Shown here in pieces: positions 120-61,634 of a stretch of DNA of 64,000 bases. The position numbers were made by a program, and so were the translations under genes. The notes under the pieces were generated by a model. That model had not been told where the DNA came from and made no database searches. It saw nothing but the letters and a program-made list of their open reading frames with translations. The stretch is taken from the NCBI GenBank assembly GCA_965216755.1, contig CBDCGL010000011.1:2560001-2624000 (forward strand), read 5' to 3'. The DNA is from Alphaproteobacteria bacterium. Lineage in GTDB: Bacteria; Pseudomonadota; Alphaproteobacteria; UBA7887. The number at the start of each line of letters is the position of its first letter. Position 1 is the first letter of the stretch.

Positions 120-1259
120 TCAGGCCGATGCGGCGCCTCTCTCTCGTTGGTTCGACCAGGCGATCCGACCGGCGAGCTCGCGGCTCAGATTGAGCAAGAC
201 CTTGGCCGCAATCTCTGGTTCGGCTCGTATGAAGCGCTCCAAGAAATCGCCCGACAGCACCAGCGCCTCGCCTTCGGTTTGCGCGATGACGTTGGCGGTT
301 CTTGGCACCGCGGTTAAAAACGCGATTTCGCCGAAAGTATCGCCAGCGCCGTAGACCGCCAATGGTGGCCCGTCATCATCGCCCAGTCTCACCTCAGCAA
401 GGCCCTTCAGCAAAACATACACCGTATTGTCACGTTCGCCTTGCCGGATTAGCCGATCGCCGGGTCGCACATTCATGATCGTCGCCTTATCCAGGAAACG
501 CGCCGCTTCGTCCTGGGTCAGACCACGCAGTAGGGCAACGGCATGCAGCGGATCATGAGCAACCCGTTCGGCGAGCAAATCAAAAAACACGTCCTCGCCA
601 ATCAGACCAGCGCTCTGCAACTTGACATAGTCTGGATAGGTGCGCTCGAACCAAGCCCGCGCGGGTGGGTCGATCCGGTGTTCGGGCAAGACCGTGGCCA
701 AGGGCGAACGGACAGTCTTGAAATAGCCAAGGTCGCCAATCAGCATCAAAATCGGCACTTTGTAGCCAAATGCCGTGTCGTTATAGCCGCGCGTGTAACG
801 GCGGTAGCCGAGCTGCTCATAGAAGGGCAGCAAGTGTGGGCTGCAGTCGCCGAAATTAGTTCGAATGCCGCGCGCGAGAGCGGTCAGAAACGCTTCGCGC
901 ACCAGCTGAAAGATCGCCATTGAATTGCGCTTATGCGGCGCAATGATAAATCGACTAGAGGTCACGACGGCGCTGGCTCCGAATTCGGCCATGGCCGGAC
1001 CCATTTCAAACGCATTGATCAGCGGCGCCGGATCGCGGACGTGATCCATCAGGATCAGACGCAGCGAGCCAACCACGTCGTCGCCCTCGAAAACCGCAAA
1101 CGACAACGACTGGTCGTCATATTGGTCGCGAAGCCAACGGTTTTCGTGGTCGGCCTGCGCCGTCAAGCCCAGCTCTTCCACATAGACCTGATAGCGAAAC
1201 CGATAAATAGCCTCGCGTTCGGCCTCGGACTCGACAACACGAACGACGGTCTTCGCCAT
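120..1259 (-). CDS. FeeM/LuxI-like GNAT acyltransferase fused to a C-terminal cyclic-nucleotide-binding domain
   Basis: N-terminal 'EREAIYRFRYQVYVEE...LRDQYD...VVGSLRL...SSRFII' is typical of N-acyl amino acid/AHL synthase-type GNATs. C-terminal 'LIRQGE...VYVLLKG...FGEIAFLTAVPRTANV' is an intact cNMP phosphate-binding cassette. Confidence 0.8.
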   Translation of the reverse strand: MAKTVVRVVESEAEREAIYRFRYQVYVEELGLTAQADHENRWLRDQYDDQSLSFAVFEGDDVVGSLRLILMDHVRDPAPLINAFEMGPAMAEFGASAVVTSSRFIIAPHKRNSMAIFQLVREAFLTALARGIRTNFGDCSPHLLPFYEQLGYRRYTRGYNDTAFGYKVPILMLIGDLGYFKTVRSPLATVLPEHRIDPPARAWFERTYPDYVKLQSAGLIGEDVFFDLLAERVAHDPLHAVALLRGLTQDEAARFLDKATIMNVRPGDRLIRQGERDNTVYVLLKGLAEVRLGDDDGPPLAVYGAGDTFGEIAFLTAVPRTANVIAQTEGEALVLSGDFLERFIRAEPEIAAKVLLNLSRELAGRIAWSNQRERGAASA

Positions 1260-1900
1260 TACGGCCTCTGGGTCGCTTCACGCAGCATGCGCGGGTAGAT
1301 ATCCGCCATCACATCCGCAACATGATGCACGTCGGCCAAGTCCTGGCCCACAATGTGCGCCTCGATCTGCTCAATAATGTCCTTGGTGTGGTCTTGATCG
1401 GCTTCACCATGACCAGCCAAAAAACGAACCCCATCGGGCAACGCCAGTCCTTTGCCGACTTGTTCGGCGATCAAATGACCCAAGTCCTCACCCATCGCTT
1501 CCAGTACGAACAACCAACCAAACAGTCCGACCGGATTGGCATAGGTCGCGGTGTAATACTCGTATCCGATCATGGCCGCGCAGGCCGGCACGGGCCGGGT
1601 CGCGGCGACATCGTCACGTGAGACACCCAGCGCCGCCAAGTCACCGAGAGCCCACTCATCGTGCCCAAGTTCCTCGCGGGCATGGTGAAGCAGGTAATCC
1701 GCGACCGGTGGATTGCGCCCGACCGCGCGCGCGCCGGCGATGCCGATCACGATGGCGCTGTGCTGGGCGTAGTGCCAGACATTGGTCAGATAGCGCACAT
1801 AGACATCGCGGTCCGCCTTGCCTGCAATCAGGTCTTGGACAGCGCCGATTTGTACAATGTCGTCGCGCACCGCTCGGCGAAGTTGCGCCAAATACTCCAT
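1259..1900 (-). CDS. Heme-oxygenase-like diiron (iron-containing redox, TenA/PqqC/CADD-like) enzyme
   Basis: 'HAREELGH', 'VLE', 'FLAGHGEADQDH' metal-ligand pattern. Stop overlaps the GNAT start (TAATG). Start at 1900 (MEYLAQ) is chosen; the ORF is open to 1957. Confidence 0.75.
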   Translation of the reverse strand: MEYLAQLRRAVRDDIVQIGAVQDLIAGKADRDVYVRYLTNVWHYAQHSAIVIGIAGARAVGRNPPVADYLLHHAREELGHDEWALGDLAALGVSRDDVAATRPVPACAAMIGYEYYTATYANPVGLFGWLFVLEAMGEDLGHLIAEQVGKGLALPDGVRFLAGHGEADQDHTKDIIEQIEAHIVGQDLADVHHVADVMADIYPRMLREATQRP

Positions 1901-2031
1901 AAGACAAGCTCTTATCTCTGTGGCGCTGTTTGCCCAAGACATGCGCCCAAACACCAATTTTGGCGGAAATCTTAGCCGCCCGCACCGACATTGAGCAAAT
2001 GCCAGCTTGACCGCGCACGCAAGCGCGGCCG

Positions 2032-4074
2032 CTAGGCGCCAGTCGCGAGATTGTAGCTCCCATCCCAGTCCGAGGGCGGCGGATTTGCTGCGCGTTCCGC
2101 GGCACGCCGTGTCATGACCTGAGAGGGCCCGTCAATTTCTGCCAAAGCGCGCCACGCGCTTGCGGCACGCGCGAAATCGCCGGTCCGATAGATGTTGAGC
2201 GCGTTTTCATAGGCCGCCACGGTATGCCGCTGGGCGGCGGTCGCAGTCTCGTTATCGGCGATAATCTCAAATATCGTCAAGGGCGCGTCGATTCCCTTTA
2301 CCCGTACATGATCCAATTCACGCAACAAGAAATGATCGCGTATGGCGTCGGCCGTCGGCGCCCCGGCAACGACATTGCATCGATACAAGCCGGGCAGCGC
2401 TTCCAGCCGCGCCGCGACATTGACCATGGCGCCGATGGCCGTGTAGTTGAATCGCTTCTCATAACCGACATTGCCAACAATGGCATCGCCAGAGTGGATC
2501 GCGACTTTGATGCTGAAAGCATGTTCGCCGGCACGCTTGTCGCGTTCCTGCGTCACGGCCACTTGTTCGGTGATGCGCAGGGCCGCCGCCGCCGCGTCCA
2601 TGGCATGGTCGGCGTTCGGCAGCGGCGCGCCCCAAATCGCCATGACTGCGTCGCCGATGAACTTGTCGACATAGCCGTTCGCGCGATCGACTTCGCGGGC
2701 GACGATGCCGATATAGCGGTTGGTCAGTGCGACCAATTGGCTCGCCGGTATCCGCCGCGACAGTGCGGTGAATCCCGACAGATCGGCAAACATCACGGTC
2801 AAATCATGGTTCGCGCCCCCGAGCGTCAATGGCGTACCGCTATCGGCCAAGCGCGCGACCAAGACCGGCGAAAGATAGCGCCCGAAAGCCTGTTGCACGC
2901 GCCGGCGACGCCGATCTTCGAGCAAATAGCGGATCAAATAGGCGAGCGCCAGAGCGGCGGCAACCGCTATCATCGGGACCCCGGCCGGGAACCATATCTG
3001 CCAATCCAAAAGGACGATTTCACCCAGCCACAATCCGGCCAACGCCACCAGTCCGGCGGCGACCGCAAGCCACGGTACAAGCGTAAGACCAATGGTCGCA
3101 CCAATTGCCCCGGCCGCCGCGCCAATAGCGGCCCGCCATAGCGGCGCGATCAGTTCTGTGACGCGGCCGCGCAACACGGTATCGACGGCAACGGCATGCA
3201 AAAAAACGCCGGGCACGGCCGTACTGGCAAATCCCGGTCGCCAAGCACGCTGAGTGTCCCCATTGGATCGCGGCAAGAAACGGGCTGACGTGATCTTCTG
3301 GTCTTCCTCGGGCAGAGCACCACCGACAAAGACCACCTTGCCGGCAAATGCGTTGCGCAAGGTCTCGGGCGCCGACCGGCCCAACTGAAGAACATCGATC
3401 AGCGGAAAAGTCGGCAGTGATTCCGGGTGAAGATCGGGCGCGAGCAAGACCGGTGTCCGCCAGCGGTCATGTCCCAGGCGCGCCAACACCGCCCCCATGA
3501 GCGAGGCATACCAGTGCTCTTGCACTTCGAATCCTGCCGGTACCCAACGATAGACGCCGTCGTCGTCGGGCCGGACTTCGAGCAAGCCAAGCGCCGCCGG
3601 ATCGTTGCGCAAGGCCGCAATAAAGGGCGCTGCCGGGTTGGTCCGCACCGAACGGCCGAGGACCAAACGGTCCTTGTTCCGCGCCAACGCGGCGACAAAA
3701 TCGCGGTCAGCGTCGCGCTGGAAGGCGTTGCGCGAATAGGCGAGCAACATATCGAAGGCGACAACACGTGCGCCCGCATCGATCAATGTCGTAATCAGTT
3801 GCGCCCAATAGATTCCATAGAACGCACGCGGCCAGCGCGCCATTTCCGGATGTTCCAACGTGGTCGAATCGACAACCACGATCGCGACATCACTCTGCGA
3901 CCGATCTGCGCGTGCGGCACCGGTGGCGCTGTGCACAGCCAACGCGGTATCGAATAGCCAGCCGTCGACGACGGTCAAACCTTCAGATGTCAATGCGGCA
4001 AGGCCGGCAAGGCCCGCACAAAGAACCACGCTCGCGCGTATCACATATTTTCGGATGTTAGCGACCGGCCGCAC
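2032..4074 (-). CDS. CHASE2-domain class III adenylate cyclase
   Basis: Signal/TM, CHASE2 ('RWPRAFY','VAFDMLL','DDDGVYR','GKVVFVG','PGVFLHA'), three TM helices, then cyclase motifs 'VMFADLSGFT','DKFIGDAVMAIWGAP','YTAIG..VNVAARLE', and a TPR-like tail. Confidence 0.92.
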   Translation of the reverse strand: MRPVANIRKYVIRASVVLCAGLAGLAALTSEGLTVVDGWLFDTALAVHSATGAARADRSQSDVAIVVVDSTTLEHPEMARWPRAFYGIYWAQLITTLIDAGARVVAFDMLLAYSRNAFQRDADRDFVAALARNKDRLVLGRSVRTNPAAPFIAALRNDPAALGLLEVRPDDDGVYRWVPAGFEVQEHWYASLMGAVLARLGHDRWRTPVLLAPDLHPESLPTFPLIDVLQLGRSAPETLRNAFAGKVVFVGGALPEEDQKITSARFLPRSNGDTQRAWRPGFASTAVPGVFLHAVAVDTVLRGRVTELIAPLWRAAIGAAAGAIGATIGLTLVPWLAVAAGLVALAGLWLGEIVLLDWQIWFPAGVPMIAVAAALALAYLIRYLLEDRRRRRVQQAFGRYLSPVLVARLADSGTPLTLGGANHDLTVMFADLSGFTALSRRIPASQLVALTNRYIGIVAREVDRANGYVDKFIGDAVMAIWGAPLPNADHAMDAAAAALRITEQVAVTQERDKRAGEHAFSIKVAIHSGDAIVGNVGYEKRFNYTAIGAMVNVAARLEALPGLYRCNVVAGAPTADAIRDHFLLRELDHVRVKGIDAPLTIFEIIADNETATAAQRHTVAAYENALNIYRTGDFARAASAWRALAEIDGPSQVMTRRAAERAANPPPSDWDGSYNLATGA

Positions 4075-4117
4075 GTCCCATCGCCGCTGCTAAGCTCTCT
4101 TCACCACGCTTTGTGGA

Positions 4118-4774
4118 TCAATCAATCCGGATCAATGTCATGGCCTTGCCCCGCGCCCGGGTCAAGACATCCAAATCGACCCGTCCCACACTTTCGCCGG
4201 ACATGGCCAAGAGTTCCAAAGTCAACGTGGCGTCGTCGCCGAGCTCTTCAATATCTTGCGGCCATGTGAACCGGCGGTCTTCGACCGCGCCTTCATAGAT
4301 AACGCGATCATCACGCAGCACGCGTGCCTGCGCCACGGCGCCGCCCTTGGATCCGGCCATGACCAACGTCGAAGCGCTGCCAAGGCGGACCTTCACAGCA
4401 TTGCCCAAATCGCGGACCAACACCCCGCCGATCCCCGTGCCTTCGGACAACGCGATGGTTTGCGGACAATCTGCGCGTCGAACATCGACAATTTGACCCT
4501 GCTGCACGGTGTAACTCTGCGCGCTGAAATGGAGGCGCCCGCCCGTGACCACGACTTCCTTGCAAGTTGGATAATGGAGAAACTCGACCGTACCCGCATC
4601 CGCCAGCTCAACGGCATCGCCTGGCCACAGTTCCGAGAACGGTTCGACCTCGGCGCCACTGGTCGCGTCCAATGCCAAGGCGACGGCCGAGTCGGCGTGG
4701 GCGCGCAATGTCGGCGCCACGACAACACAGAGGCTGGCCAATAACAACAAGCGCGTCATGCGGTAGCACGTCAT
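4118..4774 (-). CDS. Secreted hypothetical protein (putative periplasmic partner of the CHASE2 cyclase)
   Basis: Signal peptide 'LLLLASLCVVVAPTLRAHA', two Cys in the mature part, 43 bp upstream of the cyclase on the same strand. Confidence 0.7.
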   Translation of the reverse strand: MTCYRMTRLLLLASLCVVVAPTLRAHADSAVALALDATSGAEVEPFSELWPGDAVELADAGTVEFLHYPTCKEVVVTGGRLHFSAQSYTVQQGQIVDVRRADCPQTIALSEGTGIGGVLVRDLGNAVKVRLGSASTLVMAGSKGGAVAQARVLRDDRVIYEGAVEDRRFTWPQDIEELGDDATLTLELLAMSGESVGRVDLDVLTRARGKAMTLIRID

Positions 4775-4905
4775 TTCAAATCTCTCGTTGCGCGATGATG
4801 GCGCAATTCACGTGGTTTCTATGGTTTCTATGGGGCGATTGTAGCTCGCCTCATCAGTTATGTCTTGGCGTGGCAGGTGCATCCACAACCGCCCGCGCCA
4901 CGCGT

Positions 4906-5091
4906 TCAGGCGTACAACTCGTCAATCTCCACGGCCGCGCCGCAATGGCGCCGGCGGTGTACCTCTTTAAGGACATCGCTGAGCATGTCCGACACGGCGT
5001 GAAGTTGGTCTTCATCACCTGTATCCAACGCCCAATCCATCAGCGTGGCCTGCGCGTCGTCAAGCATATCAAGCGCATAAGTTTGCATCAT
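4906..5091 (-). CDS. Small acidic hypothetical protein
   Basis: AGGGG RBS before ATGATG at 5091; helical acidic composition; no family recognised. Confidence 0.5.
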   Translation of the reverse strand: MMQTYALDMLDDAQATLMDWALDTGDEDQLHAVSDMLSDVLKEVHRRRHCGAAVEIDELYA

Positions 5092-5300
5092 TCGTCCCCT
5101 GGTGTTGGATGTTTCAATCTCGTGCATCAATGTTGATGCTCACCCATAGACACGATGGACGCGCCGACCAGGGGTTACGAATTGCGACAAACCGCGCGCC
5201 GTAGGCGCGAAAACGCCATCGGCGGCGTCGATAGACGCCGCCGTGACGTTGATGGGCCGGGGGAGGTTTTGGTAGCGGTCGTGTGCCGCTCGATCGGCGC

Positions 5301-5630
5301 CTACTTGGTCAGGACGTAAGACCCACCGCACGTCTTGCCGACCGTGCGATACATACGCCGGCGCAGATCCATCTCATCCGGCGGGCTCGCAGCGCCAGCA
5401 GCGGCCACAACGGGAACAGCGACGGCACCAGTCGCCACGCAACCGGCGCCTTTGAAAACTGCGTGAACAGGCGTGCCAACCACGTCGATCACGTTTCGGG
5501 CGGTCGCCGTCGCGGAAGAACCGGAATGCGGTCGGGCCGTCGGCACGCCGGCACGGGGGGAAACACTATCGTCATGGGCGCAAGCGGCGGTGGCCAGAAC
5601 AAGCGCCAGAAGCATGAGTTGTTTGCGCAT
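5301..5630 (-). CDS. Putative small lipoprotein
   Basis: MRKQLMLLALVLATAA-C lipobox-like signal; GGAG RBS upstream. Confidence 0.65.
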   Translation of the reverse strand: MRKQLMLLALVLATAACAHDDSVSPRAGVPTARPHSGSSATATARNVIDVVGTPVHAVFKGAGCVATGAVAVPVVAAAGAASPPDEMDLRRRMYRTVGKTCGGSYVLTK

Positions 5631-5905
5631 GGGATGGGAACTCCGGTTTTCTTGATGGTTAACTCAGTCAGTCAAACGTTCGATGATGTACACGGGGCGG
5701 ATCGCGGTGTGGGGTTACGTTGACAGCAAATTCTCGCGATTCTTTTCGGATCCGGACTTAAACGAAATGGCTCCCGATGTTGCGCCCGATCACCCCGGCG
5801 CTGCCTTCGGCCGACACGAGCAATGTCGGACATTGCCACGACGGTCGGCCGAAGGTCGCTTCCCCGGGGACACGGGTCGGGCGATGCGACGAAGAAACGC
5901 GGAGA

Positions 5906-6283
5906 TTAGATCTCGCTTGCGGCCAAGGATTTGGCGACCCGCCGCTTCATGGTCTCGTAATGCTTGACCGGAAACTCAAAAATGCGCTGAAAGGCACAAC
6001 CGTTGGCATCAAACGGCACCATGATGGCTTGGCGGCGCCGTGGATCCGCGAACGTCACGATGCGCTCGACACCGTCCATTTTCGGATCTAGATACTGCAA
6101 AATGCCTTGCGTGATATCACCATTGAGAGGATCCGCCGGACGGACATGACGCCCAAACCAAAGTTTGAGGTTTTCCTGGACGACGAACGCATCGGCACAT
6201 CCGGTTTCACTTGCCGCCTCATCCGATAGCACAGCAACAGCACAGACAACGGCGGTCAATAATGTCAACAAACGTTTGGGCAT
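5906..6283 (-). CDS. Secreted hypothetical protein
   Basis: AGGAGG RBS before ATG 6283; signal peptide MPKRLLTLLTAVVCAVAVLS; two Cys in the mature part. Confidence 0.65.
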   Translation of the reverse strand: MPKRLLTLLTAVVCAVAVLSDEAASETGCADAFVVQENLKLWFGRHVRPADPLNGDITQGILQYLDPKMDGVERIVTFADPRRRQAIMVPFDANGCAFQRIFEFPVKHYETMKRRVAKSLAASEI

Positions 6284-6409
6284 TGTAACCTCCTGCATGT
6301 CCCGGGGATTTGCGGCTTTGCGTGGGGTCGTCGTTGGCACCGCTTCTGCCTATAGACACGTAGAAAGCACAGGATAAGGGTTGCCAAAAATGTGCTGCGG
6401 GATGCGGAT

Positions 6410-6442
6410 AAAAAGATCCGGTGTGTGGAAACCACACACCGG
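6410..6442 (-). terminator. Rho-independent terminator
   Basis: Perfect 11-bp stem CCGGTGTGTGG/CCACACACCGG (6418-6442), followed on the minus strand by ATCTTTTT; lies downstream of ORF 6495-6683. Confidence 0.65.
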
Positions 6443-6494
6443 CTGAGTTCGACCATCAGGGAGGTATCGAGGAGGAAAAGCGTTGGAACGGGCG

Positions 6495-6683
6495 CTAGGC
6501 GGAAGCCGTTCGAAAAATGAAAGAATTTGTCATTTTGGCCATATCGGCGTGCTTGTTTTCGCCGGTCAGGTCCGAGATCGCCCGCCGCAAACCCGCGGCA
6601 TCATCGGCATAACCCGGTGCGTTGGTGAAAATCGCGAGGCCGATAAGGGCAACAATCGTGCGGATTTTCGAATTACGTGTCAT
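6495..6683 (-). CDS. Small secreted peptide/protein (62 aa)
   Basis: Signal peptide MTRNSKIRTIVALIGLAIFTNAPGYA; followed by a terminator. Confidence 0.5.
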   Translation of the reverse strand: MTRNSKIRTIVALIGLAIFTNAPGYADDAAGLRRAISDLTGENKHADMAKMTNSFIFRTASA

Positions 6684-6758
6684 GGTCGTGGCTCGCTGGC
6701 CTTATTGTTTTGCATCTTGGTTTTTTCTTGACCGTCGCCGCGGCACCTGGAGTTTTGG

Positions 6759-8126
6759 TTGCGTGCATGCGACGTTCGCCTGTTAACACGCCGGACGGTG
6801 CGCAATGGGGTGACCAGGACACGAAAAAATCTTGAACGGCGCCGCCATGGCGGCGCGGGCAATGGCGCGCGCGGCGCACCACGCCCGCTGGCCGGTGTGA
6901 TCTTGTTATGTTGCGTCTGTGTTATGGCGCTTGGACCTGCGGCGCTGGCGCAGCGTTCTCAGCAAGATCCAAACGCGTTCGCCGATGCCGAGGCGTTGGA
7001 AGGCGCCGCCCGTGACGGCGATCCACAGGCGCTGTTTACATTGGCCGATCAGTATGAGCAGGGCTTGGGCCGTGACTTTGATCTGACGGCGGCGGCACAC
7101 TACATGGAACTCGCGGCCGAACGTGGCCACCGTGCGGCACAGTATCGCATGGCGCTGATGCTGGCGCGGGGCGTTGGCGTGACCGCCGATACGCTCGAGG
7201 CGTATCGCTGGTGCCATTTGGTCGTCGGCGATGAGACCGATGGCGACGCGGCCCGAGACGATCGTGAGCCAGATACGATCGCCCTATTGGCGCGATCACT
7301 TTGCGCAACGTTGGCGGACACACTCTCCGTGGAGGATGTTCGCGCTGCCGAAGACCAAGCATCATCATTTGTCGCGGTCACTGGCCCCGTGCCGTCTGCG
7401 CAAGCGACGGCACAGGCGGCCGCCGACGACGATGTGGACGGCGATCCGGTGGCGCAGATTCTGGCACGGTTGCCGGCCGGGCAGTGCGGCGCCTACCAGA
7501 TCACCCAGGACGGCGACAACCGGTTTCAGCTTGCTGCGTATGCACCCAGCGCCGCGGCCAGAGACGCACTGGCGTCGGCATTTCGCGCCGAGACCGAAGC
7601 CAATGACGAGGCGATCAAAATCACGGTGCTGGCGCCCGTACTATGTGCCGTGATCGCGCTGATCGACCGACATCGGGCCACGGCACCCGTTTCCATTGGC
7701 ACCCTGTACAATGGGCGCGGGGAGGAAACCGACCTTTTCCAAGACGGCGACAGCGTCATTTTGGACATCTCACCGCGCGAGACGCCACACTATGTCGCCA
7801 TCGACTATTTGGTCGCCGATGGTGTCGCCGCGCGCCTGTATCCGCTTACATCCGAGAGTGAACACCTCCTGTCTGCCGGCGAACGACTGCGGCTGGGAGC
7901 CGAGGGGTCGCCATCAGGGGTGTGGGAGGTGGGGCCGCCATTTGGCTCTGACCTGTTGGTCATATTGGCGTCGCCCGACGCGCTGCAGCTTCGGATTCCG
8001 GCGCAAGACAGTGTCGCCGACTACACATCCACCCTTGAAAACGCGCTACGCGACAGCGGACCGAATGGGTCGTTGCTGATAGGCTATCGCGTGGTCACGA
8101 TCGAACCCGCTGGATCGACGCGATGA
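6759..8126 (+). CDS. Exported Sel1-repeat protein with C-terminal DUF4384-like domain
   Basis: Signal peptide '...VMALGPAALA'; Sel1 motifs 'GDPQALFTLADQYEQGLG','GHRAAQYRMALMLARGVG'; C-terminal 'FQDGDSVILDI...IDYLVADG...LYP...WEVGPPFGSDLLVILAS'. The true start is uncertain and probably downstream of 6759. Confidence 0.75.
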   Translation: MRACDVRLLTRRTVRNGVTRTRKNLERRRHGGAGNGARGAPRPLAGVILLCCVCVMALGPAALAQRSQQDPNAFADAEALEGAARDGDPQALFTLADQYEQGLGRDFDLTAAAHYMELAAERGHRAAQYRMALMLARGVGVTADTLEAYRWCHLVVGDETDGDAARDDREPDTIALLARSLCATLADTLSVEDVRAAEDQASSFVAVTGPVPSAQATAQAAADDDVDGDPVAQILARLPAGQCGAYQITQDGDNRFQLAAYAPSAAARDALASAFRAETEANDEAIKITVLAPVLCAVIALIDRHRATAPVSIGTLYNGRGEETDLFQDGDSVILDISPRETPHYVAIDYLVADGVAARLYPLTSESEHLLSAGERLRLGAEGSPSGVWEVGPPFGSDLLVILASPDALQLRIPAQDSVADYTSTLENALRDSGPNGSLLIGYRVVTIEPAGSTR

Positions 8127-9313
8127 GCCTGCTGAAGAACCCCTTTTTGTGGCAAGCCGTGGTCGCGCTGTTGTTTGTGCCCCTGCTGCTGACCATGGCG
8201 GCGCCGTTAGCCCCGGTCGCGCCCTTGATCGCGTTGGTGGCGGCCTGCTATGTGATCTGGCGTCTCACCCGCATCGGCGGCGTGGTACGACGGGCCGCTG
8301 CCGCCCTGGCGCCCGACCGCACGCCGCCGCGCGCACCCGCCATATCCGGCACGATCGCACCGCTCGAGCAAAGCGCCAAAATCGACCCCGATGACATGCG
8401 CCGCTATCTCAATGCCTGCGTCATCGGCCAGGACGTCGTCGCCGGACAACTGGCGCGCGGTATCTATCGTCGAATGGCCCAACAACAACGCAACAAACCG
8501 ATCTTTACGGCTTTGCTGAGCGGGCCCACCGGAACAGGCAAGACCGAAATCGCGAAAGCGGTCGCCCGTTATTTGTTTGGCAGCGTCAGCAGCATGTTTC
8601 GAGTCGACTGCGCCAATGTGCTCGGCGAAGCCGGCCTGCAAACTCTGATCGGATCGCCCAAGGGATTTGCCGGGTCCAGTTCGTGGGGATCGCTGACCGC
8701 CCATTTGCGGGCGATGCCACGCACTGTCCTGTTGTTCGACGAAATCGAAAAGGCGGTGCCTTCACCCACCGCACCGATGGCCAAATTGCTGTTGTCACTG
8801 CTCGATGAGGGCGTGTGTACCGAGCAAAGCGACGGCACCGCGGTCAGCGCAACCGAGGCGGTGATCCTGCTCACCTCGAACGCGGCGCAAAAGCGCCTTG
8901 GCCCCATATTCCAGCAATATCGGGACAAGCCCGAGGAGCTGGTCCGGGCCACCAAGGACACGCTTCAGGACCATTTTGCCCCCGAATTCCTGGCCCGTAT
9001 CGATCTGGTCACCACCCTGGCGCCGCTTGACGACCAGGCGCGCGGCAAGATCATCGCCATGCACGCCGGCCGCATCGGTGATTCCTATGGGGTCAGCATT
9101 GCCAGCGTCGACGCCTCCTTTGTCAACGAAGCCCTGCGTATCGCGAACAGTCTGGAAGACTACGGGACGCGTGAAATCATCCGTTGGGTCGAACAAGCCG
9201 TTGCCGACCAGTTGATCAAGGCGGCGGAAAGCGGCACCAAACGCGCCTCGCTCGCTTGGTTAGACGGCGCCGTGCGGGTCACACCGGTCAGCGACGCCGC
9301 CGAAACGCCGTGA
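8123..9313 (+). CDS. Membrane-anchored stand-alone ClpA/ClpB D2-type AAA+ ATPase
   Basis: Two N-terminal TM segments; Walker A GPTGTGKT; pore loop LIGSPKGFAG; Walker B LLFDEIEKA; sensor-1 LTSN; PEFLARID; sensor-2 YGTR. ATGA overlap with the upstream gene. Confidence 0.85.
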   Translation: MSLLKNPFLWQAVVALLFVPLLLTMAAPLAPVAPLIALVAACYVIWRLTRIGGVVRRAAAALAPDRTPPRAPAISGTIAPLEQSAKIDPDDMRRYLNACVIGQDVVAGQLARGIYRRMAQQQRNKPIFTALLSGPTGTGKTEIAKAVARYLFGSVSSMFRVDCANVLGEAGLQTLIGSPKGFAGSSSWGSLTAHLRAMPRTVLLFDEIEKAVPSPTAPMAKLLLSLLDEGVCTEQSDGTAVSATEAVILLTSNAAQKRLGPIFQQYRDKPEELVRATKDTLQDHFAPEFLARIDLVTTLAPLDDQARGKIIAMHAGRIGDSYGVSIASVDASFVNEALRIANSLEDYGTREIIRWVEQAVADQLIKAAESGTKRASLAWLDGAVRVTPVSDAAETP

Positions 9314-9329
9314 TGACCCGCCCCCGGCC

Positions 9330-12300: not shown

Positions 12301-12557
12301 CGCCGGAAACATCGTGGGTGTTGCGGGTCGACGGTCATACCGACCGGCGCCCCATTCAGACCTCGGAATTTCCGTCGAATTGGGAGCTGTCGACAGCCCG
12401 GGCGCTGTCTGTGGTGCGCTATTTGATCGAACGCGGGATCCCGCCCGACCGCTTGGCCGCGTCGGGATTCGGCGAGTTTCACCCAATCGATCCTGGCCAG
12501 TCCGGAGACGCCTTTCGCCGCAATCGGCGTATAGAACTAAAACTCACCACACGCTGA
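9330..12557 (+). CDS. Giant coiled-coil protein with C-terminal MotB/OmpA-like peptidoglycan-binding domain
   Basis: One N-terminal TM, about 850 aa of Ala/Glu/Gln/Leu heptads, then 'VGDRFVFPSEVFF...LRVDGHTD...SNWELSTARA...GFGEFHP...NRRIELKL'. Confidence 0.88.
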   Translation: MTAPAPKTGLGARLSWILRHDWLFVPAMIVTLYGGYLSVTAPPNWLQRVPVAVDDVVTGARQDLTATVDELQVASNEARRLFDDASAEFAQERESLQDAVASRDTEIDALNESLDETREALDQRTQTLNERDARLAESRDSVAALEQEATAIASERDDLRTALDFAESDLARAQDRVAALQAALAERAASVESLTSEAANASTQTDALRDSLTGAQRDLDAAEQRVVALEEALADREASVTRLEEQLTATAAERRELESALSAAQQDVAAARDQAAVSDARVAEQAAEITADQQEITRLNTALTTARAQTAATEQQMVEVNSGLDALRNERAALAASVDSQRQRIATLTSTLADAETQLGQSAAQLAARDATIEQLNQQIRSAQSASDSLRETLSDVTTASGETQGQIATLGATLAQTRAERTALATEVAAQQAQIETLNAALGDARTALESGTATLAEREAAVASLEEQIAAATAERARLVASVQEAEAAAADARAQTSDLEARLQEQAAAIATQEQQVTILRTDLDAAREAATAATADAAALATDRDALVAERDQLAEARTAEADRITTLTASLAAAQAAHDDTLATLAEREAAAEIVTSQVAEAAQQRAQLQAALADAEQAAAAASRRAAALEQQVRDQAGADADASQIADLTIRLRDVENERDAALASLAEAEEGAAAATNRVAELQRQAQNQAAADASEIADLDARLQEVEDAREALSTELTEQQAMATSLTAARETAEAALVEANRETAELTERLQGIDSERATLAANVTSQQQEMAALSASLANAKADFDGQTIDLAERDETIAKLTARVTDAEAETERLSAAVADGRTALADRETDLADARRQADAERAELEQLGDRLRQSERELARRTRLAGALQSEVMRLMGALGASQKAAGTGDAESGTGPGQAAASGGAGSDIGKYRSAFFALLSAVVGTRSDVRTVGDRFVFPSEVFFPSGSAILGPEGRAELDKVADALLEIARNIPPETSWVLRVDGHTDRRPIQTSEFPSNWELSTARALSVVRYLIERGIPPDRLAASGFGEFHPIDPGQSGDAFRRNRRIELKLTTR

Positions 12558-12571
12558 TCAATAACGGCACC

Positions 12572-12611
12572 GGACCGTGGCGGCCATGTCTGATACCGGC
12601 CGCCACGGTCC
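12572..12611. terminator. 14-bp perfect inverted repeat between convergent genes (likely bidirectional terminator)
   Basis: GGACCGTGGCGGCC (12572-12585) / GGCCGCCACGGTCC (12598-12611); no clear U-tract. Confidence 0.55.
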
Positions 12612-12669
12612 CGTCTCGTGAAATAGCCCGGACCCTTTTGCCATGAACCCGGTCTATCTCGGCGTGAAT

Positions 12670-13275
12670 TCAGCCGCCGAGATTGATGATCTTGACCCGT
12701 CGATTGGCCCCTGAGGCCGGATCGGCACTGTCATACAGCTCCGATTCGCCTTTGCCGACCGTCACCAGGCGGACATGGTCGACAGCGTGCCGTGAGATCA
12801 GATAATTCTGAACCGACAGCGCGCGTTTTTCGGACAAGCTCTGGTTGTAGCTGTCAGAGCCCACGGCGTCCGTGTGGCCTTCGATCACAAACTTAAACGC
12901 ACCGAGATCGTCAGAATTGAGCGCCGCGGCCAAGTTATCCAGCGTGGCCATGCCATCCGGCGTCAACTCCGCAGAGTCGAACCCGAACTCGATCCGCACC
13001 GAGGCGGCGGGACTCAATTGCTCGGGTTGAGCCTGTGTCGCCGCTGTTTGCGGCATCGTTTCCGGATCGGCGTTCGGATCCGGTCGACGTTGAATGCCAC
13101 GCGTGCGGAACATTGGCTGCGGCTTGAGCGCTTGGATGAAATCATCAACGCTGGCGCCATCTTCCAAATAAGCGCTGGCGTCATCAGCTAAGACACCCTG
13201 ATTTGGGCCAAAAACAGCGACGAGCGCCGCGGTCACGGCCACCACGGTTAAACTGCGCATTACGTTCATCGTCAC
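12670..13275 (-). CDS. Exported OmpA-family peptidoglycan-binding protein
   Basis: Signal peptide; 'IEFGFDSAEL...IEGHTDAVGSDSYNQSLSEKRA...GKGE...NRRV'. Confidence 0.9.
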   Translation of the reverse strand: MTMNVMRSLTVVAVTAALVAVFGPNQGVLADDASAYLEDGASVDDFIQALKPQPMFRTRGIQRRPDPNADPETMPQTAATQAQPEQLSPAASVRIEFGFDSAELTPDGMATLDNLAAALNSDDLGAFKFVIEGHTDAVGSDSYNQSLSEKRALSVQNYLISRHAVDHVRLVTVGKGESELYDSADPASGANRRVKIINLGG

Positions 13276-13520
13276 CCCTCTGTCAGGCTTCTTTCGTTAT
13301 TATAACGGGTGTCGGCACTATTGCAGACACCTTAGTCTAACACGCAACAGGACTGGGTGAGGGGTTTGTGGACCAGGGCCGGTGTGCGATGAAATTAAAG
13401 GGTGTTGCATTTTTGCGCCTCGATAAAACGTAGCAACAAGTGAACACGTGAAAAAATCGCGCTTTGTAACTGGAAAGCAAAGGGTTAGCCTTACGAACCA
13501 GAATAGACATTGATCGAATT

Positions 13521-14507
13521 ATGAAGCGCATCGCATTCATTACTGGCTTGCTGCTCTATGCGGCGCCGGCGCTAGCCGACGTGTCGGAAGCGCTGACGGC
13601 GTATCGGCGCGGCGACTACGCGACGGCGATCACCGAATTCACCGTGGCCGCGCAAGCCGGCGATCCTGTTGCACAGTTCAATTTGGCTGTGATTCACCAT
13701 AAGGGCGTCGGCACGTCGCCGGACCCGGCATTGGCCAGCGAATGGTACCGGGCCGCCGGTCTGCAGGGCTTGCAGCAAGCCCAGATTGAATTAGGTCGCA
13801 TGTATGCCACCGGCGCAGGCGCCTTTTGGAACGCCGAAGCCGCCGAGATCTGGTACCGTGCGGCGGCAAAACATGGTGACTCAACCGCGCAGTACCAACT
13901 TGGCGAGATGTACTACAGAGGCGACGGGGTTCAGAAGGACGGCGCCGAAGCCGCCAACTGGTTGCGCTTGGCCGTTGAGCAAAACCATGTGCGCGCGCAA
14001 TTCCTTTTGGGATACCTGCACGCTGCCGGAGTCGGCGTCGCGCAAAGCGATGAATTGGCGGCGAAGTATTATCGCATGGCCGCCGAGGCGGGATATCCGC
14101 CGGCGCAGTTGAATTTGGCCTTCATGTATTCCCATGGCAAGGGCGTGCCGCGCGATTTCAACGAAGCCACGAAATGGAATCGGCGCGCCGCGCGGCAAGG
14201 TTATGCCGGCGCGCAAGGCATTGATATTATTGAACGCAGCAATGTGGACGGGGTGCCACAGAGCTTCGTGGATGCCTATGCGTGGTGGCACATGGCCGCG
14301 GTCCACGGCAACCCCTTAGGGACCAGCTATCGCGACACCCTAAATACGCTGCTAACGCCCGAGGAAGTAACCGAAGCGATCGCTCTGTTTGACCAACTGA
14401 TGAGCGAAGCCAAGGTCGCCGGCAGCAGTCGGGCGACACCGCCCCGCGAGCGTTCGAACATGGTCAACAACCGGCCTGATTTGGCCATTCAAACGTCGGC
14501 AAAATAA
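13521..14507 (+). CDS. Exported Sel1-repeat protein
   Basis: Signal peptide ending 'APALA'; about six Sel1 repeats (e.g. AQFNLAVIHHKGVG, AQYQLGEMYYRGDGV, AQLNLAFMYSHGKGV). Confidence 0.9.
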   Translation: MKRIAFITGLLLYAAPALADVSEALTAYRRGDYATAITEFTVAAQAGDPVAQFNLAVIHHKGVGTSPDPALASEWYRAAGLQGLQQAQIELGRMYATGAGAFWNAEAAEIWYRAAAKHGDSTAQYQLGEMYYRGDGVQKDGAEAANWLRLAVEQNHVRAQFLLGYLHAAGVGVAQSDELAAKYYRMAAEAGYPPAQLNLAFMYSHGKGVPRDFNEATKWNRRAARQGYAGAQGIDIIERSNVDGVPQSFVDAYAWWHMAAVHGNPLGTSYRDTLNTLLTPEEVTEAIALFDQLMSEAKVAGSSRATPPRERSNMVNNRPDLAIQTSAK

Positions 14508-14821
14508 TCGTCGGCGATCACAAATTCGTCACCCCTCCTCCGTCACCGCCACGTGTCTACCGTTAGCAGGTTCTGCGTCTCCCGTGTCGCGCCCCGCGGT
14601 TTGGGTTCGATCTGCCGGCAACAATGCCGCGCAATCAATCCGTTGCCGCGCCACGTGCGCGTGCGCGCAGACCAGATCGACATGCCGCGCCGGACCCGTG
14701 CCGGAACATGGCAGTCGACATAATGAAGCAGGAAAGGAACGACGGGACGTGGCATGATGATTTCGCGAGCGTTAGGATTATTGCCCGCTGGTCGATGCCG
14801 CACATTGATTTGGAGGAAGCC

Positions 14822-17800
14822 ATGACTGTCGAAGCCTATGAGACGCATCCGCGTCGGTTTGGACCGCGTCGGTTTGCGACTTTGTCGGCACGCTGGGGTC
14901 TGTTCGCGGCCCTTTGCCTTGCGATGCCGGGTCTGGTTGTATCGGCGACCAGCAGCCCACATGGAGACTGGTTTATCCGGCCGGCAGCCGCCGCGACCAA
15001 CGTCGCCGATAAGTTCACCGTGGTCGATTGCGTACTGCCCGGGCAAGTGCGCAAGTTGGGTCGCCGGACAACCTATTTGACCGCCCGTCGGGCCACCAAA
15101 ACGTCGATCTTGGACTGCGAAATCCGTGGCGGCGAGTATGTCGCCTATGACCGTGCTTCGTATCAGACGGCCCTGAATGTATGGATGGACGAGGCCGGCG
15201 CGGGCGATCCGCAAGCCCAGCTTTACGTTGGCGAGATCTACGAGAAAGGCCTCGGCGTGGCGCCCGATTACGACCTCGCCGCGGTCTGGTACAAAAAGGC
15301 GGCCGAACAAGGCCTGGCGCCGGCTCAAGTCAATCTCGGCAATCTCTATGAAAAAGGTCTCGGCGTGCCCAAGGATCCGGACACTGCCCTGGCGTGGTAT
15401 CGCCGCGCGTCCGGATTACCGGATGTCGGCCTCGACTATATGCCGTTTGGTGACTTTGCTCAGCAGGTCGAAGGGTTGCGCCAAGAACTGGCGTCACGCA
15501 CCGAACAGCTAGAGCTGCGCACAGAGGAATTGGCGCAACGGACCCAGGAGGTCGAGCAGTTGCGAGGGTCCCTGGGTCAAGCGCAGCGCAGCCTGCATGA
15601 AACGACCCGTCAGTTATCGGCAAGCCAAAAAGCCGCCAGTGCCAAGCAAGCCGAATTGGCCGCGGAGCAGCAAGCCCTAGCCGCGGAACGCGCCGCCCTG
15701 ACCGCCTCGACCGAAGCCGTGAAGACCGAACGCGCCCGCCTGGAAGCGGCGCTGCAGAACGCCGGCGGTACCGACCCGGCGGAACTGCAAGCCTTGCAAG
15801 CGCGGCTTCAAGAGAGCGAACAAAACGTCGCGAAGCACCGCCAAGCCCTTGAAATCCGCAACCAACAAGTGACCCAGCTGAACAGCGAAGTCACCCAACG
15901 GAACCAAGAAATTGCCGCGTTGCAGACGGTCGCGGACAGCAAGGACGCGGAGTTCGCCGCGCTCAAACAAGAGCTCAGTGAGGGCAGCTCAGGCGCCGTT
16001 GCGTTGCGCCAACAGCTGGACCGTCGTGAGGCTGAACTGAAACAACTGACCGCCAAGCTCAGCGGCACCCAAACCGAACTGGAGACCACCAAGAACGCGT
16101 TGGCCGCGCGTACGTCCGAGGCCACCGCCCAGCGGCAACAGTTGGACAGTGTGCGCAGCGAACTTGAGGCGCAACAAAAAGCGCTCGACGCACTCAAAGC
16201 CCAGCAAGACGGTTTGGTCGACAAAGAAGAAGCCGACTCGGCCCGCAACACTTTACAAATGCAACTGCAAGACCGCGCCGATGCCTATATCCAAGCGGAG
16301 GCCGAGGTCGCCCGGCTCAACAGCGCCCTTGCCGACAGCCAGGGCGAGGTGGCGCAACTGCAAAACCAAGTCAACCAACTCGCGGTGCAAGCGACCAACC
16401 AGCGCGAGCAATTGGCCTCCGCGGAACTGGCGGTAGAATCCTCGTCGGCCACCGAAGACGCACTCAAGCAAGAGGTTGAGCGACGCGCCGCCGAGGTCGG
16501 AAGCCTGAACCAGCAATTGGCGGAACTTGCCGACACGTTGCAGCAGAAGTCCGCGCAACTGGCACGACGGGAAGCCGATTCGGAACTTGCCAGCAATCAG
16601 TTGGCCGCCGCGCAACAGGAGCTATCGGATACACGCACGGCGCTCGAAGCGCTGCAATCGGATACCACCGCCAATACGGCCGACTTGAACCAGCGGATCC
16701 AAGCATTGACCGCGCAATACCAAGCGGGACAGGAGAAAGCCGCGCAGCTCGACGCCGAGTTGGCGGATAGTCGCTCGGAGATCGGCCGCCTTGAGTCGCA
16801 ATTGGCCAACCTCGAGGTCACCGCCAATAGCCAGGAACAGGAACTGGTCACGGCAGAGCAGCAGTTTGTTGACGCCGGCCCGATCATCGAACTGATCGAC
16901 CCGGCATTGCTGGTCACGCCCGAAGGGCGCACCATCGCGCGTACGCGCGGCGGCATCGAAAGTCGCGTGCTCATCGGGCGGGTCACCGCACCATCTGGCC
17001 TGTTGACCCTGACCATCAACGACGTCGAACAGCAGTTCGACGAGCAAGGCCTGTTTCGGGCCAGCTTGCCGGTCATCGGCGCCACCACCGGCGTCACGAT
17101 TAGCGCGGTCGATAGCAACGGCTATCGCAGCGCGTTGGACTTCTCTCTTGAGCTCGACGGCTCTGGCGAGATTGCCGCGCCGCCAACACCAGAGGTCAAG
17201 ACCCCCAGTCAACCGCCGCTGGTGCCGATTGCCGATGTCAAGTTCGGCAATTACTACGCGCTGGTCATCGGTAGCAACGACTACGCGCACCTGCCTGATC
17301 TGGAGACCGCGATTACCGACGCCCGCGCCGTTTCGCAGGTGTTGCGGGACAAGTACGGCTTTATCGTGACCACGCTGGAAAACGCAACCCGTTACGACAT
17401 TCTGTCGGCGATGAACGAATTCCGCGAGACGCTAACGGAAGAAGACAACTTCCTGCTCTATTACGCGGGTCATGGTGAGCTCGACCGCGTCAATCAACGC
17501 GGCCACTGGCTGCCCATCGATGCCGAGCCGGACAGCACCGCCAATTGGATCTCCAACGTGGCGATCGCCGACATCCTCAACGCGATGAACGCCAAGCATG
17601 TCTTGGTGGTGGCGGATTCGTGCTATTCCGGCGCCCTGACACGCACCGCTTTGGCGCGCCTCAACACCGGCATGACGCAAGAGCAACTGACCCAGTGGCT
17701 CAAGGTGATGGTGCAAAAACGCGCCCGTCTGGCGTTGACGTCGGGTGGCTTGCAGCCTGTCTATGACAGCTTCGGCGGCGATCATTCGGTATTCGCTAAC

Positions 17801-17980
17801 GCGATCTTGGGCGTATTGAATGACAATGGCGAAGTGTTGGGCGGTCAGCGTTTGTTTGAAGAGGTCGCGGCGCGAGTCAATTTCGTCGCCCAGTCATACG
17901 GCCTTGAACAATTGCCGCAATATTCGCCGATCCGGTTTGCCGGCCATGAATCCGGCGACTTCTTTTTCGTGCCGCTCTAA
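14822..17980 (+). CDS. Exported Sel1 / long coiled-coil / caspase-like (peptidase C14) protein
   Basis: GGAGG RBS before ATG 14822; signal peptide with RRF motifs; Sel1 repeats; about 480-aa coiled coil; C14 domain 'YYALVIG...YYAGHG...VADSCYSG' with intact His/Cys dyad. Confidence 0.9.
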   Translation: MTVEAYETHPRRFGPRRFATLSARWGLFAALCLAMPGLVVSATSSPHGDWFIRPAAAATNVADKFTVVDCVLPGQVRKLGRRTTYLTARRATKTSILDCEIRGGEYVAYDRASYQTALNVWMDEAGAGDPQAQLYVGEIYEKGLGVAPDYDLAAVWYKKAAEQGLAPAQVNLGNLYEKGLGVPKDPDTALAWYRRASGLPDVGLDYMPFGDFAQQVEGLRQELASRTEQLELRTEELAQRTQEVEQLRGSLGQAQRSLHETTRQLSASQKAASAKQAELAAEQQALAAERAALTASTEAVKTERARLEAALQNAGGTDPAELQALQARLQESEQNVAKHRQALEIRNQQVTQLNSEVTQRNQEIAALQTVADSKDAEFAALKQELSEGSSGAVALRQQLDRREAELKQLTAKLSGTQTELETTKNALAARTSEATAQRQQLDSVRSELEAQQKALDALKAQQDGLVDKEEADSARNTLQMQLQDRADAYIQAEAEVARLNSALADSQGEVAQLQNQVNQLAVQATNQREQLASAELAVESSSATEDALKQEVERRAAEVGSLNQQLAELADTLQQKSAQLARREADSELASNQLAAAQQELSDTRTALEALQSDTTANTADLNQRIQALTAQYQAGQEKAAQLDAELADSRSEIGRLESQLANLEVTANSQEQELVTAEQQFVDAGPIIELIDPALLVTPEGRTIARTRGGIESRVLIGRVTAPSGLLTLTINDVEQQFDEQGLFRASLPVIGATTGVTISAVDSNGYRSALDFSLELDGSGEIAAPPTPEVKTPSQPPLVPIADVKFGNYYALVIGSNDYAHLPDLETAITDARAVSQVLRDKYGFIVTTLENATRYDILSAMNEFRETLTEEDNFLLYYAGHGELDRVNQRGHWLPIDAEPDSTANWISNVAIADILNAMNAKHVLVVADSCYSGALTRTALARLNTGMTQEQLTQWLKVMVQKRARLALTSGGLQPVYDSFGGDHSVFANAILGVLNDNGEVLGGQRLFEEVAARVNFVAQSYGLEQLPQYSPIRFAGHESGDFFFVPL

Positions 17981-18005: not shown

Positions 18006-18038
18006 AAGGCCGCCGCCGCAAAGCGGCGGCCTTTTTTT
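18006..18038 (+). terminator. Rho-independent terminator after the caspase gene
   Basis: AAGGCCGCCGC-cgcaaa-GCGGCGGCCTT followed by a T-run. Confidence 0.85.
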
Positions 18039-21248: not shown

Positions 21249-21280
21249 GCCCGCCTCAATGCAGTCGTCATCGCTGGCGC

Positions 21281-22642: not shown

Positions 22643-22695
22643 GCGCGGTTCCTCAATGGTTGGCGACCGGTGGCATGAATGACCGGCGCGATTGG

Positions 22696-23073: not shown

Positions 23074-23117
23074 AGCGGCTTTCCCCAAGATTATGTGCGC
23101 CCATCATTGTTTGCGTC

Positions 23118-24526: not shown

Positions 24527-24574
24527 GAAGCCGCGTATTATATGGTGATCAAGGCGGTTCGCCAAGCATCGCGG

Positions 24575-61533: not shown

Positions 61534-61634
61534 TCCTTTTGCGCCCACCACGACAGGCGTGCTAGTGTGACCATGATGTTTATCGGCCTGGTCTAAGAGC
61601 CTCTGTGAAGACCGCTAAACCCACGCGTGGCCAT

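Follow-up and report, generated by a model that had tools for sequence, protein, structure and literature searches.

An alphaproteobacterial cluster of envelope genes with signs of a link between a CHASE2 adenylate cyclase and an exported caspase-like protease

CHASE2 is among the commonest sensor domains of bacteria, and to our knowledge its ligands are largely unknown. Cyclic AMP (cAMP) controls an enzyme directly in mycobacterial Pat (Rv0998 type), in which a cyclic nucleotide monophosphate-binding (cNMP-binding) domain is fused to a GNAT acyltransferase, while in NlpI-Prc and LbcA-CtpA helical-repeat periplasmic adaptors steer a protease, or get cleaved, controlling envelope enzymes or a membrane sensor. 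In the available text of the respective papers, the CHASE2 cyclases CyaD1, CyaD2 and CyaK of Sinorhizobium meliloti respond to a protein signal via NsrA and act through Clr (PMC13001267), ExoR binds ExoS (cited in PMC7327166), and a CHASE2-metacaspase fusion exists in Trichodesmium erythraeum (PMC3501461). Here we describe an 18-kb gene cluster (positions 120 to 17,980) in a stretch of 64,000 nucleotides, hereafter the window, from an Alphaproteobacteria bacterium of the UBA7887 lineage (assembly GCA_965216755.1, contig CBDCGL010000011.1, positions 2,560,001 to 2,624,000 of the forward strand). The cluster encodes a CHASE2 adenylate cyclase, a cNMP-binding acyltransferase, a membrane-anchored AAA+ ATPase and an exported caspase-like protease, and of these modules only the cyclase and the caspase show signs of joint travel in other bacteria.

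A previous inspection of the DNA and its open reading frames (ORFs), referred to as the sequence-only reading, had taken the region for an undescribed envelope-surveillance island. Its observations are confirmed and its interpretation is partly supported. All the domains that it named (a caspase with its catalytic dyad, Sel1, DUF4384, OmpA, a ClpB-D2 ATPase, a CHASE2 cyclase and a cNMP-binding enzyme) score above the Pfam gathering cut-off with catalytic motifs intact, 11 of the 18 ORFs scanned having a family match and seven having none. The envelope theme also stands, as nearly all proteins are exported or membrane-anchored: the hydropathy scan gives an export or anchor segment in 8 of 11 cluster proteins, with a weaker one computed by hand on the coiled-coil protein with an OmpA domain, and the proteins free of such segments are cytoplasmic enzymes only; the ATPase domain is cytoplasmic too.

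The region consists of three tight units of envelope genes and is not one demonstrated system. Unit A (operon A, minus strand) encodes a secreted protein, the CHASE2 cyclase, a haem-oxygenase-like oxidase and a FeeM-type acyltransferase with a cNMP-binding domain, the genes being separated by 43 bp, 74 bp and then a 1-base overlap. Unit B (operon B, plus strand) encodes a Sel1-DUF4384 protein, an ATPase of the ClpB-D2 type with two transmembrane (TM) segments and a coiled coil of 1075 amino acids (aa) with a terminal OmpA domain, spaced by a 4-base overlap and then a 16-bp gap. Unit C comprises an OmpA-domain protein, a five-repeat Sel1 protein and the Sel1/coiled-coil/caspase protein. Our preferred reading, to which we give a probability of about 40%, is that the core of the cluster is a signalling axis between the exported Sel1/coiled-coil/caspase protease, together with its Sel1 partner, and the CHASE2 cyclase, with the acyltransferase as the output.

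Contig sharing among the modules

In order to assess co-occurrence we used a proxy based on the longest contig listed for each homologue: homologues in two lists whose contigs are of identical size (in bp) were counted as sharing a contig. The lists compared were those of the ATPase, the caspase C-terminus, the cyclase (enlarged with the members of ten clusters) and 20 acyltransferase relatives, and they included 119 caspase contigs and 210 CHASE2-cyclase contigs. As a positive control, the contig of the window itself (4,853,305 bp) is present in the ATPase, caspase and cyclase lists. The caspase and the cyclase share three contigs of at least 10 kb (10,783, 11,756 and 82,694 bp) where 0.10 are expected (Poisson P = 1.5e-4), and the gene pair fits on each of them. 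The caspase and the ATPase share one such contig (22,160 bp; 0.034 expected, P = 0.033). Short matches (3,002, 3,355, 3,686 and 6,325 bp) are at chance level, and only the contig of 6,325 bp could hold both genes; those of 3,002 and 6,325 bp, which pair the ATPase with the cyclase, lie within chance (1.3 expected). By this proxy, the co-occurrence of the sub-clusters, on which the sequence-only reading depended, is seen for the cyclase and the caspase, and not for the ATPase with the cyclase or for the acyltransferase.

A number of results weigh against a signalling axis of this kind. The three cyclase-caspase matches, being indirect and based on size, show a shared contig and not adjacency, and the caspase list holds the best 120 of more than 3037 matches, so that frequencies cannot be derived from it. 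At 10 kb or more, none of the 27 ATPase contigs recurs in the cyclase list (0.055 expected), and no contig of the 20 acyltransferase relatives recurs in any other list (0.006-0.017 expected); nothing but operon structure, in this single genome, ties the acyltransferase to the cyclase. The contigs of 10.8 kb and 11.8 kb are too small for the 15.9-kb arrangement of the window, which places the ATPase operon outside the conserved cyclase-caspase pair: this 5.8-kb operon and the other intervening genes cannot fit between the two. A profile search of genome contigs with the ATPase alignment returned 80 loci at 29-39% identity, which are ClpB genes of all phyla found through the Walker-A pattern, and another cluster gene was present at none of the 80. 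Protein searches of PLSDB with the ATPase, the OmpA tail, the acyltransferase, the caspase tail, the cyclase and the 218-aa secreted protein gave no close relatives and no syntenic locus. Finally, sites of the CRP type (0 matches, 0.33 expected) and of the Clr type (14 matches, 18.3 expected) are not above chance; no Crp or Clr gene was seen among the window genes.

The main rival explanation is that three independent envelope modules lie side by side in this chromosome by chance, namely a self-contained operon, gated by cAMP, for an N-acyl amino acid or aminolipid, a machine of ATPase and coiled coil that is anchored in the wall, and a periplasmic pair of Sel1 adaptor and protease resembling NlpI-Prc or LbcA-CtpA. 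The modules are set apart by changes of strand, by a gap of 2 kb (4775-6758) and by divergent spacers rich in AT, each family is large and occurs in many lineages on its own, and the lack of contig sharing just described for the ATPase with the cyclase, and for the acyltransferase with anything, fits this explanation. Sel1-caspase is moreover a common stand-alone architecture, with Sel1 in 6% of prokaryotic metacaspases according to the portion of PMC3501461 available to us. However, the excess of shared contigs for the cyclase with the caspase, and the single one for the ATPase with the caspase, are not what unrelated neighbours should give, CHASE2-metacaspase fusions have been published, and the themes of Sel1, OmpA and giant coiled coil are common to units B and C. 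We take accidental proximity seriously, while on balance we lean against it.

Less likely is that the whole 18 kb forms one integrated envelope-surveillance system, in which the ATPase and the OmpA coiled coil would be indispensable as a mechanical or resetting arm. In favour of this, every part faces or spans the envelope, the caspase family is seemingly linked both to the cyclase and to the ATPase, and one CHASE2 cluster at 90% identity occurs on the 10,783-bp contig (caspase match) as well as on the 6,325-bp contig (ATPase match), which is suggestive only. Against this, the 6,325-bp match lies within chance, a listed cyclase is found on none of the 27 ATPase contigs of at least 10 kb, and operon B has no room between the cyclase and the caspase on the two smaller shared contigs. 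The ATPase operon, which the sequence-only reading had cast as an arm of the cyclase system, therefore shows no link to it, and we consider full integration improbable.

Anti-phage defence, whether by a Pycsar-like cyclase and cNMP effector or of the caspase-effector kind, is very unlikely. PADLOC matches to the cyclase (PycC, 7e-30), the cNMP domain (PycTIR, 8.5e-18), the ATPase (PDC-M37B, DolB), OmpA (ZorB) and the caspase speak for it, but, in line with the sequence-only reading, they reach no further than single domains (7 of 16 proteins) with no ZorA or DolA partner. The cyclase, moreover, senses through a periplasmic domain and shows residues of the purine type, an acyltransferase takes the place of a membrane or TIR toxin as effector, the protease of the caspase kind is an exported one, and the neighbours are housekeeping and not defence genes, with no phage or mobile genes.

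Components of the cluster and their surroundings

The features of the cluster and its flank are listed in Table 1. The cyclase has one TM segment, a periplasmic CHASE2 domain, three TM segments, a class III cyclase domain and a short helical tail (hydrophobic segments 11-29 and 315-381), and thus displays the order of a CHASE2 cyclase, in which CHASE2 is flanked by TM segments and followed by the cyclase homology domain. In class III cyclases the metal, transition-state and base-contact residues have a known meaning, and a base-contact pair of the Lys/Thr type stands for adenine. In the alignment to Pseudomonas aeruginosa CyaB (3r5g), both base-contact residues agree, being Lys and Thr in either protein; among 34 sequences D431, D475, T545, N552 and R556 are invariant and K471 is conserved in at least 90%, so that the two metal Asp, the transition-state Asn and Arg and the Lys plus Thr/Asp pair of a class III adenylate cyclase are all in place. 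Because of this pair and the invariant Asp, Asn and Arg, the residues point to cAMP as the putative product, which agrees with the adenylate cyclase of the sequence-only reading. Rhizobial cyclases are about 33% identical to it, in alignments that cover the C-terminal half to three-fifths of the query.

Table 1. Features of the cluster and of its right flank (positions in the window; Pfam scores in bits, cut-offs in brackets)
Feature	Position	Strand	Remarks
FeeM/GNAT-type N-acyl amino acid synthase with C-terminal cNMP-binding domain, 379 aa	120..1259	-	last gene of operon A; cNMP_binding 67.9, FeeM 44.7 (27), Acetyltransf_5 37.3 (22.4)
Haem-oxygenase-like oxidase, 232 aa	1259..1957	-	operon A; Haem_oxygenas_2 63.2
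CHASE2 sensor adenylate cyclase, 680 aa	2032..4074	-	operon A; CHASE2 89.8 (26.3), Guanylate_cyc 69.3 (21.9)
Secreted protein, 218 aa	4118..4774	-	first gene of operon A, upstream of the cyclase; no named family
Further small ORF	4906-5130	-	no family match
Lipoprotein-like small ORF	5301-5630	-	no family match
Small secreted protein	5906..6340	-	between operons A and B
Strong hairpin terminator	6442-6418	-	between operons A and B
Small ORF with signal peptide	6495-6683	-	no family match
Exported Sel1 and DUF4384 protein	6759..8126	+	first gene of operon B; Sel1 34.8, DUF4384 32.3
Membrane-anchored single-ring AAA+ ATPase, ClpB-D2 type, 396 aa	8123..9313	+	operon B; AAA_2 106.9
Giant coiled-coil protein, 1075 aa	9330..12557	+	operon B, directly past the ATPase gene; OmpA 62.9, many coiled-coil families
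Exported OmpA-domain protein, 201 aa	12670..13275	-	unit C; OmpA 75.7
Exported five-repeat Sel1 protein, 328 aa	13521..14507	+	unit C; signal peptide; Sel1 149.1 in 5 stretches
Exported Sel1, coiled-coil, beta-sandwich, caspase protein	14822..17980	+	unit C; Peptidase_C14 91.8 (21.4), Sel1 73.6
Terminator-like hairpin	18012..18030	+	8-pair all-GC stem, then T run; 32 bp past the caspase stop; right end of the cluster
ORF, 172 aa	18685-19203	+	plausible protein-like sequence; no family match; between cluster terminator and gcvPB
gcvT-gcvH-gcvPA-gcvPB operon	19725-24239		downstream of the glycine riboswitch
Glycine riboswitch	24407-24529	-	61.8 bits (gathering score 32)

The acyltransferase shares operon A with the cyclase, which bears out the sequence-only reading of a cNMP-binding enzyme beside it. 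Its GNAT domain scores above the cut-off and assigns it to the FeeM-type N-acyl amino acid synthases, with substrates predicted by family only; there is also a weak NCBIfam match to OlsB (2.6e-7). The phosphate-binding cassette of the cNMP domain is kept, with Gly-Glu and Arg-Thr-Ala in the translation. The fusion is represented by 375 cluster representatives at E<=1e-30, of which a large majority align over both domains, and we found no paper on a FeeM-type acyltransferase-cNMP fusion; it is apparently a widespread, conserved and unstudied family. A C-terminal S-adenosylmethionine methyltransferase domain is added in four of eight longer relatives (P0387, P0419, P0442 and P0474), which fits a small-molecule product that undergoes modification, and an oxidase domain was fused to none of 15 relatives. 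Two relatives (P0397 and P0406) contain a second cNMP-binding stretch. The protein is not a Pat enzyme, as the Pat model gives 35.5 bits against a cut-off of 460, over the cNMP part only and with reversed domain order. On the Paracoccus aminophilus plasmid NC_022043.1 (104141-110460, in PLSDB), a class III cyclase lies about 5 kb from a gene annotated as "cyclic nucleotide-binding and patatin-like phospholipase", a further case of a cyclase beside a cNMP-gated lipid enzyme.

The oxidase is probably a di-iron enzyme. Compared with sequences in the PDB it matches 3dde at 1e-23 and the mangotoxin protein MboA at 7.6e-6, with the His/Glu-rich motifs aligned. The 218-aa protein has a signal-like segment at 5-23 in the hydropathy scan and no match in Pfam, NCBIfam, PADLOC, PHROGs or PLSDB, its ESM Atlas neighbours being unnamed Pseudomonadota clusters of 86-353 members (scores 0.95-0.96).

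The caspase protein belongs to a family of more than 3037 members and has both the caspase fold and the His-Cys dyad of Peptidase C14. The catalytic His and Cys are invariant in all 38 aligned family members; the predicted structure has a mean predicted local distance difference test (pLDDT) score of 82.7 and matches GSU0716, MALT1 and metacaspases in the PDB (Foldseek, E 1e-10 to 1e-7). The protein has 1052 aa when read from 14822 and 1118 aa from an ATG at 14624, and the start is probably at 14822 since the database copy of the protein has 1052 aa. A small beta domain at the N terminus precedes the Sel1 repeats and has two invariant Cys, which are consistent with an oxidising, extracytoplasmic location; in a fold search of this N-terminal module only the Sel1 part was matched. 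A domain of another module was fused to the caspase in none of six relatives. Assignment to the EACC1-associated caspases (NF047832) was rejected at 70.8 bits against a cut-off of 140. Azospirillum plasmid proteins annotated as "filamentous hemagglutinin N-terminal domain-containing" (PLSDB H76-H79) contain a region with 34-35% identity to the beta-sandwich and caspase tail over 97% of the query, and these proteins resemble two-partner-secretion exoproteins with a caspase-like end. The five-repeat Sel1 protein is weakly matched by the models of MotX (54.5 bits) and of ExoR (44.9 bits), both far under the cut-offs, that of ExoR being 450, and it was not assigned to ExoR. The OmpA-domain protein of the same unit begins with a signal peptide (segment 5-23) but lacks a lipobox Cys, which corrects an earlier account.

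In unit B, the Sel1-DUF4384 protein has a hydrophobic segment at 44-62 (hydropathy scan). The ATPase has an N-terminal hydrophobic hairpin of two TM segments and aligns to the D2 domain of Thermus thermophilus ClpB including the pore loop, with Gly-Phe-Ala-Gly here and Gly-Tyr-Val-Gly in ClpB; across 25 aligned sequences the Walker A residues, the Asn of sensor 1 and two Arg show no variation. From this alignment, with its aromatic pore loop and invariant motifs, the ATPase is predicted to thread polypeptide. It is not a ClpB, ClpV or other Hsp100 chaperone, which possess an N-domain and the two AAA+ rings D1 and D2, as residues 92-367 match only the D2 region of ClpB (559-829) and the NCBIfam scores are 140 bits for ClpB (cut-off 1232) and 133.8 bits for TssH (cut-off 885). 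We found 690 homologues, the closest at 68% identity, and none of nine relatives carries a fused domain of another module. Relatives of 487-509 aa (P0079-P0093) form a subgroup with about 110 extra N-terminal residues in which there is no Pfam domain. A Microvirga match to the ATPase (PLSDB) lies among unrelated genes.

The giant coiled coil combines a weak N-terminal anchor, a helical portion of about 890 aa and, at its C terminus, a peptidoglycan-binding domain of the OmpA type. Its central 890 aa include a single Pro and 26% Ala, and no tandem repeats were found in the DNA of the coiled-coil genes. Residues 771-1075 score 259 bits with an NCBIfam model of the PRK09039 type, under its cut-off of 305, and over 303 aligned positions this C-terminal part has 39% identity with the PRK09039 protein of S. 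meliloti. The protein was not classed as a PRK09039/MotB-like stator, given that the match is below the cut-off and C-terminal only, the N-terminal segment does not align and the upstream gene encodes an AAA+ protein and not MotA. In S. meliloti (CP090106.1, 3814-10254) the gene order is Sel1 protein, inositol monophosphatase, MotA/TolQ/ExbB, PRK09039 protein and ABC protein. At 60700-63458 the window has an inositol monophosphatase gene and, right after it, one for an ABC transporter; the MotA/PRK09039 pair is missing from this place, and the only PRK09039-like tail seen in the window is that of the giant coiled coil, about 50 kb away. In our view unit B is a machine of its own, driven by ATP and anchored in the wall, which descends from the MotB-like PRK09039 family and has a weak link to the protease.

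Sequence similarity among the cluster proteins, compared all against all by BLAST, is of the generic Sel1, OmpA and coiled-coil kind only, and their nearest homologues are named Geminicoccaceae or Rhodospirillaceae. The gap between the divergent operons A and B holds small ORFs with export signals, none of which has a family match. One of them, the protein at 5906..6340, has a signal-like segment (hydropathy scan) and no match in Pfam, NCBIfam, PADLOC or PHROGs, with only unnamed ESM Atlas clusters at scores below 0.9, and its membership of the cluster is uncertain. To the right, the flank is of housekeeping character, with the gcvTHP operon under the glycine riboswitch, dsbD, thrC, cytochrome oxidase genes, tldD/pmbA and ubiA/ubiD. 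On the left, the cluster reaches the border of the window and may therefore extend further. The "island" of the sequence-only reading finds no support as foreign DNA, because the GC content of the cluster genes (0.55-0.66) resembles that of the neighbouring gcvP genes (0.63-0.64) and no phage or mobile genes were found among the window proteins by PHROGs and family scans.

A possible relay from protease to cAMP

From domain identities, topology, intact motifs, operon structure and the statistics of cyclase-caspase contig sharing we infer how the axis may work, including its causal steps, the chemistry of its product and the contacts between its proteins. The periplasmic caspase-like protease, positioned by its Sel1 repeats and long coiled coil, would cleave a protein, candidates being a Sel1 inhibitor (as with ExoR) or a protein of the wall or envelope. 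The CHASE2 domain might read the cleavage product or the loss of the inhibitor, perhaps aided by the secreted 218-aa protein, upon which the cyclase would make cAMP. The nucleotide would then bind the C-terminal domain of the acyltransferase and switch the enzyme on directly, without transcription. Together with the haem-oxygenase-like oxidase, the acyltransferase could make an oxidised N-acyl amino acid or aminolipid that alters or signals the state of the envelope. The sequence-only reading had proposed the same order, from proteolysis through CHASE2 and cAMP to a metabolite, which we likewise put forward as a conjecture. The Sel1-DUF4384/AAA+/OmpA-coiled-coil operon would be a separate machine that may feed into the same protease. 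A more ambitious scheme, in which a conserved relay has the coiled-coil-tethered exported caspase control the CHASE2 cyclase, cAMP activate the N-acyl amino acid synthase directly, and an AAA+/wall-anchored machine (an AAA+ ring replacing the MotA channel) provide the mechanical input in this genome, seems to us unlikely.

If the protease is indeed a conserved partner of the cyclase, it gives a concrete hypothesis for what CHASE2 reads. The family of exported bacterial caspase homologues that carry Sel1 repeats has thousands of members, and we found no role assigned to it. Gating of a FeeM-type acyltransferase by cAMP, if it occurs, would be a direct route from a second messenger to a membrane lipid or signal molecule, and it would be unusual, if true, for an envelope machine to be powered by an AAA+ ATPase, in place of an ion channel, that is paired with a MotB-like wall anchor.

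Comparison with known systems

We found no described system with this architecture in the literature, in agreement with the sequence-only reading, which did not recognise the full combination. That reading had also held that several of these domains are known to co-occur, and the accessible parts of two sources bear it out: CHASE2-metacaspase fusions are on record (PMC3501461), and DUF4384 is often fused to proteases (bioRxiv 2022.08.17.504292). In the Trichodesmium fusion, as far as the available text describes it (PMC3501461), both domain families are on a single polypeptide and the caspase is cytoplasmic, whereas in the cluster the families are on two proteins, the caspase is exported and CHASE2 is joined to a cyclase.

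The S. meliloti cyclases CyaD1, CyaD2 and CyaK are, like that of the cluster, alphaproteobacterial and combine CHASE2 with a class III cyclase. Their cAMP is made upon a protein-type periplasmic signal, according to the available part of PMC13001267, as is proposed for the cyclase of the cluster. The output in S. meliloti is the transcription factor Clr and the signal passes through outer-membrane NsrA, while the only nearby cNMP receptor in the cluster is an enzyme and the linked partner of the cyclase is a caspase-like protease. That enzyme resembles Pat in having a cyclic-nucleotide-binding domain and a GNAT-fold acyltransferase in one protein, but the domain order is reversed and the GNAT part is of the FeeM/OlsB/LuxI-like kind, predicted to act on a small-molecule amino acid, in contrast to the protein lysine modified by Pat.

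Operon A also recalls the phage-defence system Pycsar, in that a cyclase and an effector gated by a cyclic nucleotide belong to the same operon, and PADLOC domain matches refer to that system. Pycsar pairs a cytosolic pyrimidine cyclase with a membrane or TIR toxin under cNMP control. Operon A differs in the periplasmic sensor domain, the purine-type residues, an enzyme (GNAT) effector with a tailoring oxidase and a housekeeping neighbourhood, and with matches at the domain level only we do not count it among Pycsar systems. Nor is the cluster a Zorya system, as the ZorB models match OmpA domains only and no match to ZorA, the long-tailed MotA-like partner, occurred among the 16 proteins scanned.

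Unit C places a periplasmic repeat protein beside a protease, as in NlpI-Prc, LbcA-CtpA and ExoR-ExoS/ChvI, although the protease is here a caspase-fold cysteine protease with a 480-aa coiled coil and the sensor is a cyclase and not a histidine kinase. In unit B, the C-terminal 275 aa of the giant coiled coil are homologous to the peptidoglycan-binding PRK09039 protein of S. meliloti, a member of the MotA/PRK09039 pair of Rhizobiales, and Sel1 and OmpA proteins accompany the coiled coil as in the MotX (Sel1)/MotY (OmpA) T-ring of Vibrio (weak MotX matches). The MotB-like N-terminal segment of PRK09039 is not shared and there are about 750 aa of extra coiled coil; where the S. meliloti gene follows that of a MotA/TolQ/ExbB channel, the cluster has the two-TM AAA+ ATPase. 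Altogether, the cluster is built from known signalling parts, and its potentially valuable core is the pairing of a CHASE2 cyclase with a caspase, with a cAMP-gated acyltransferase as the output.

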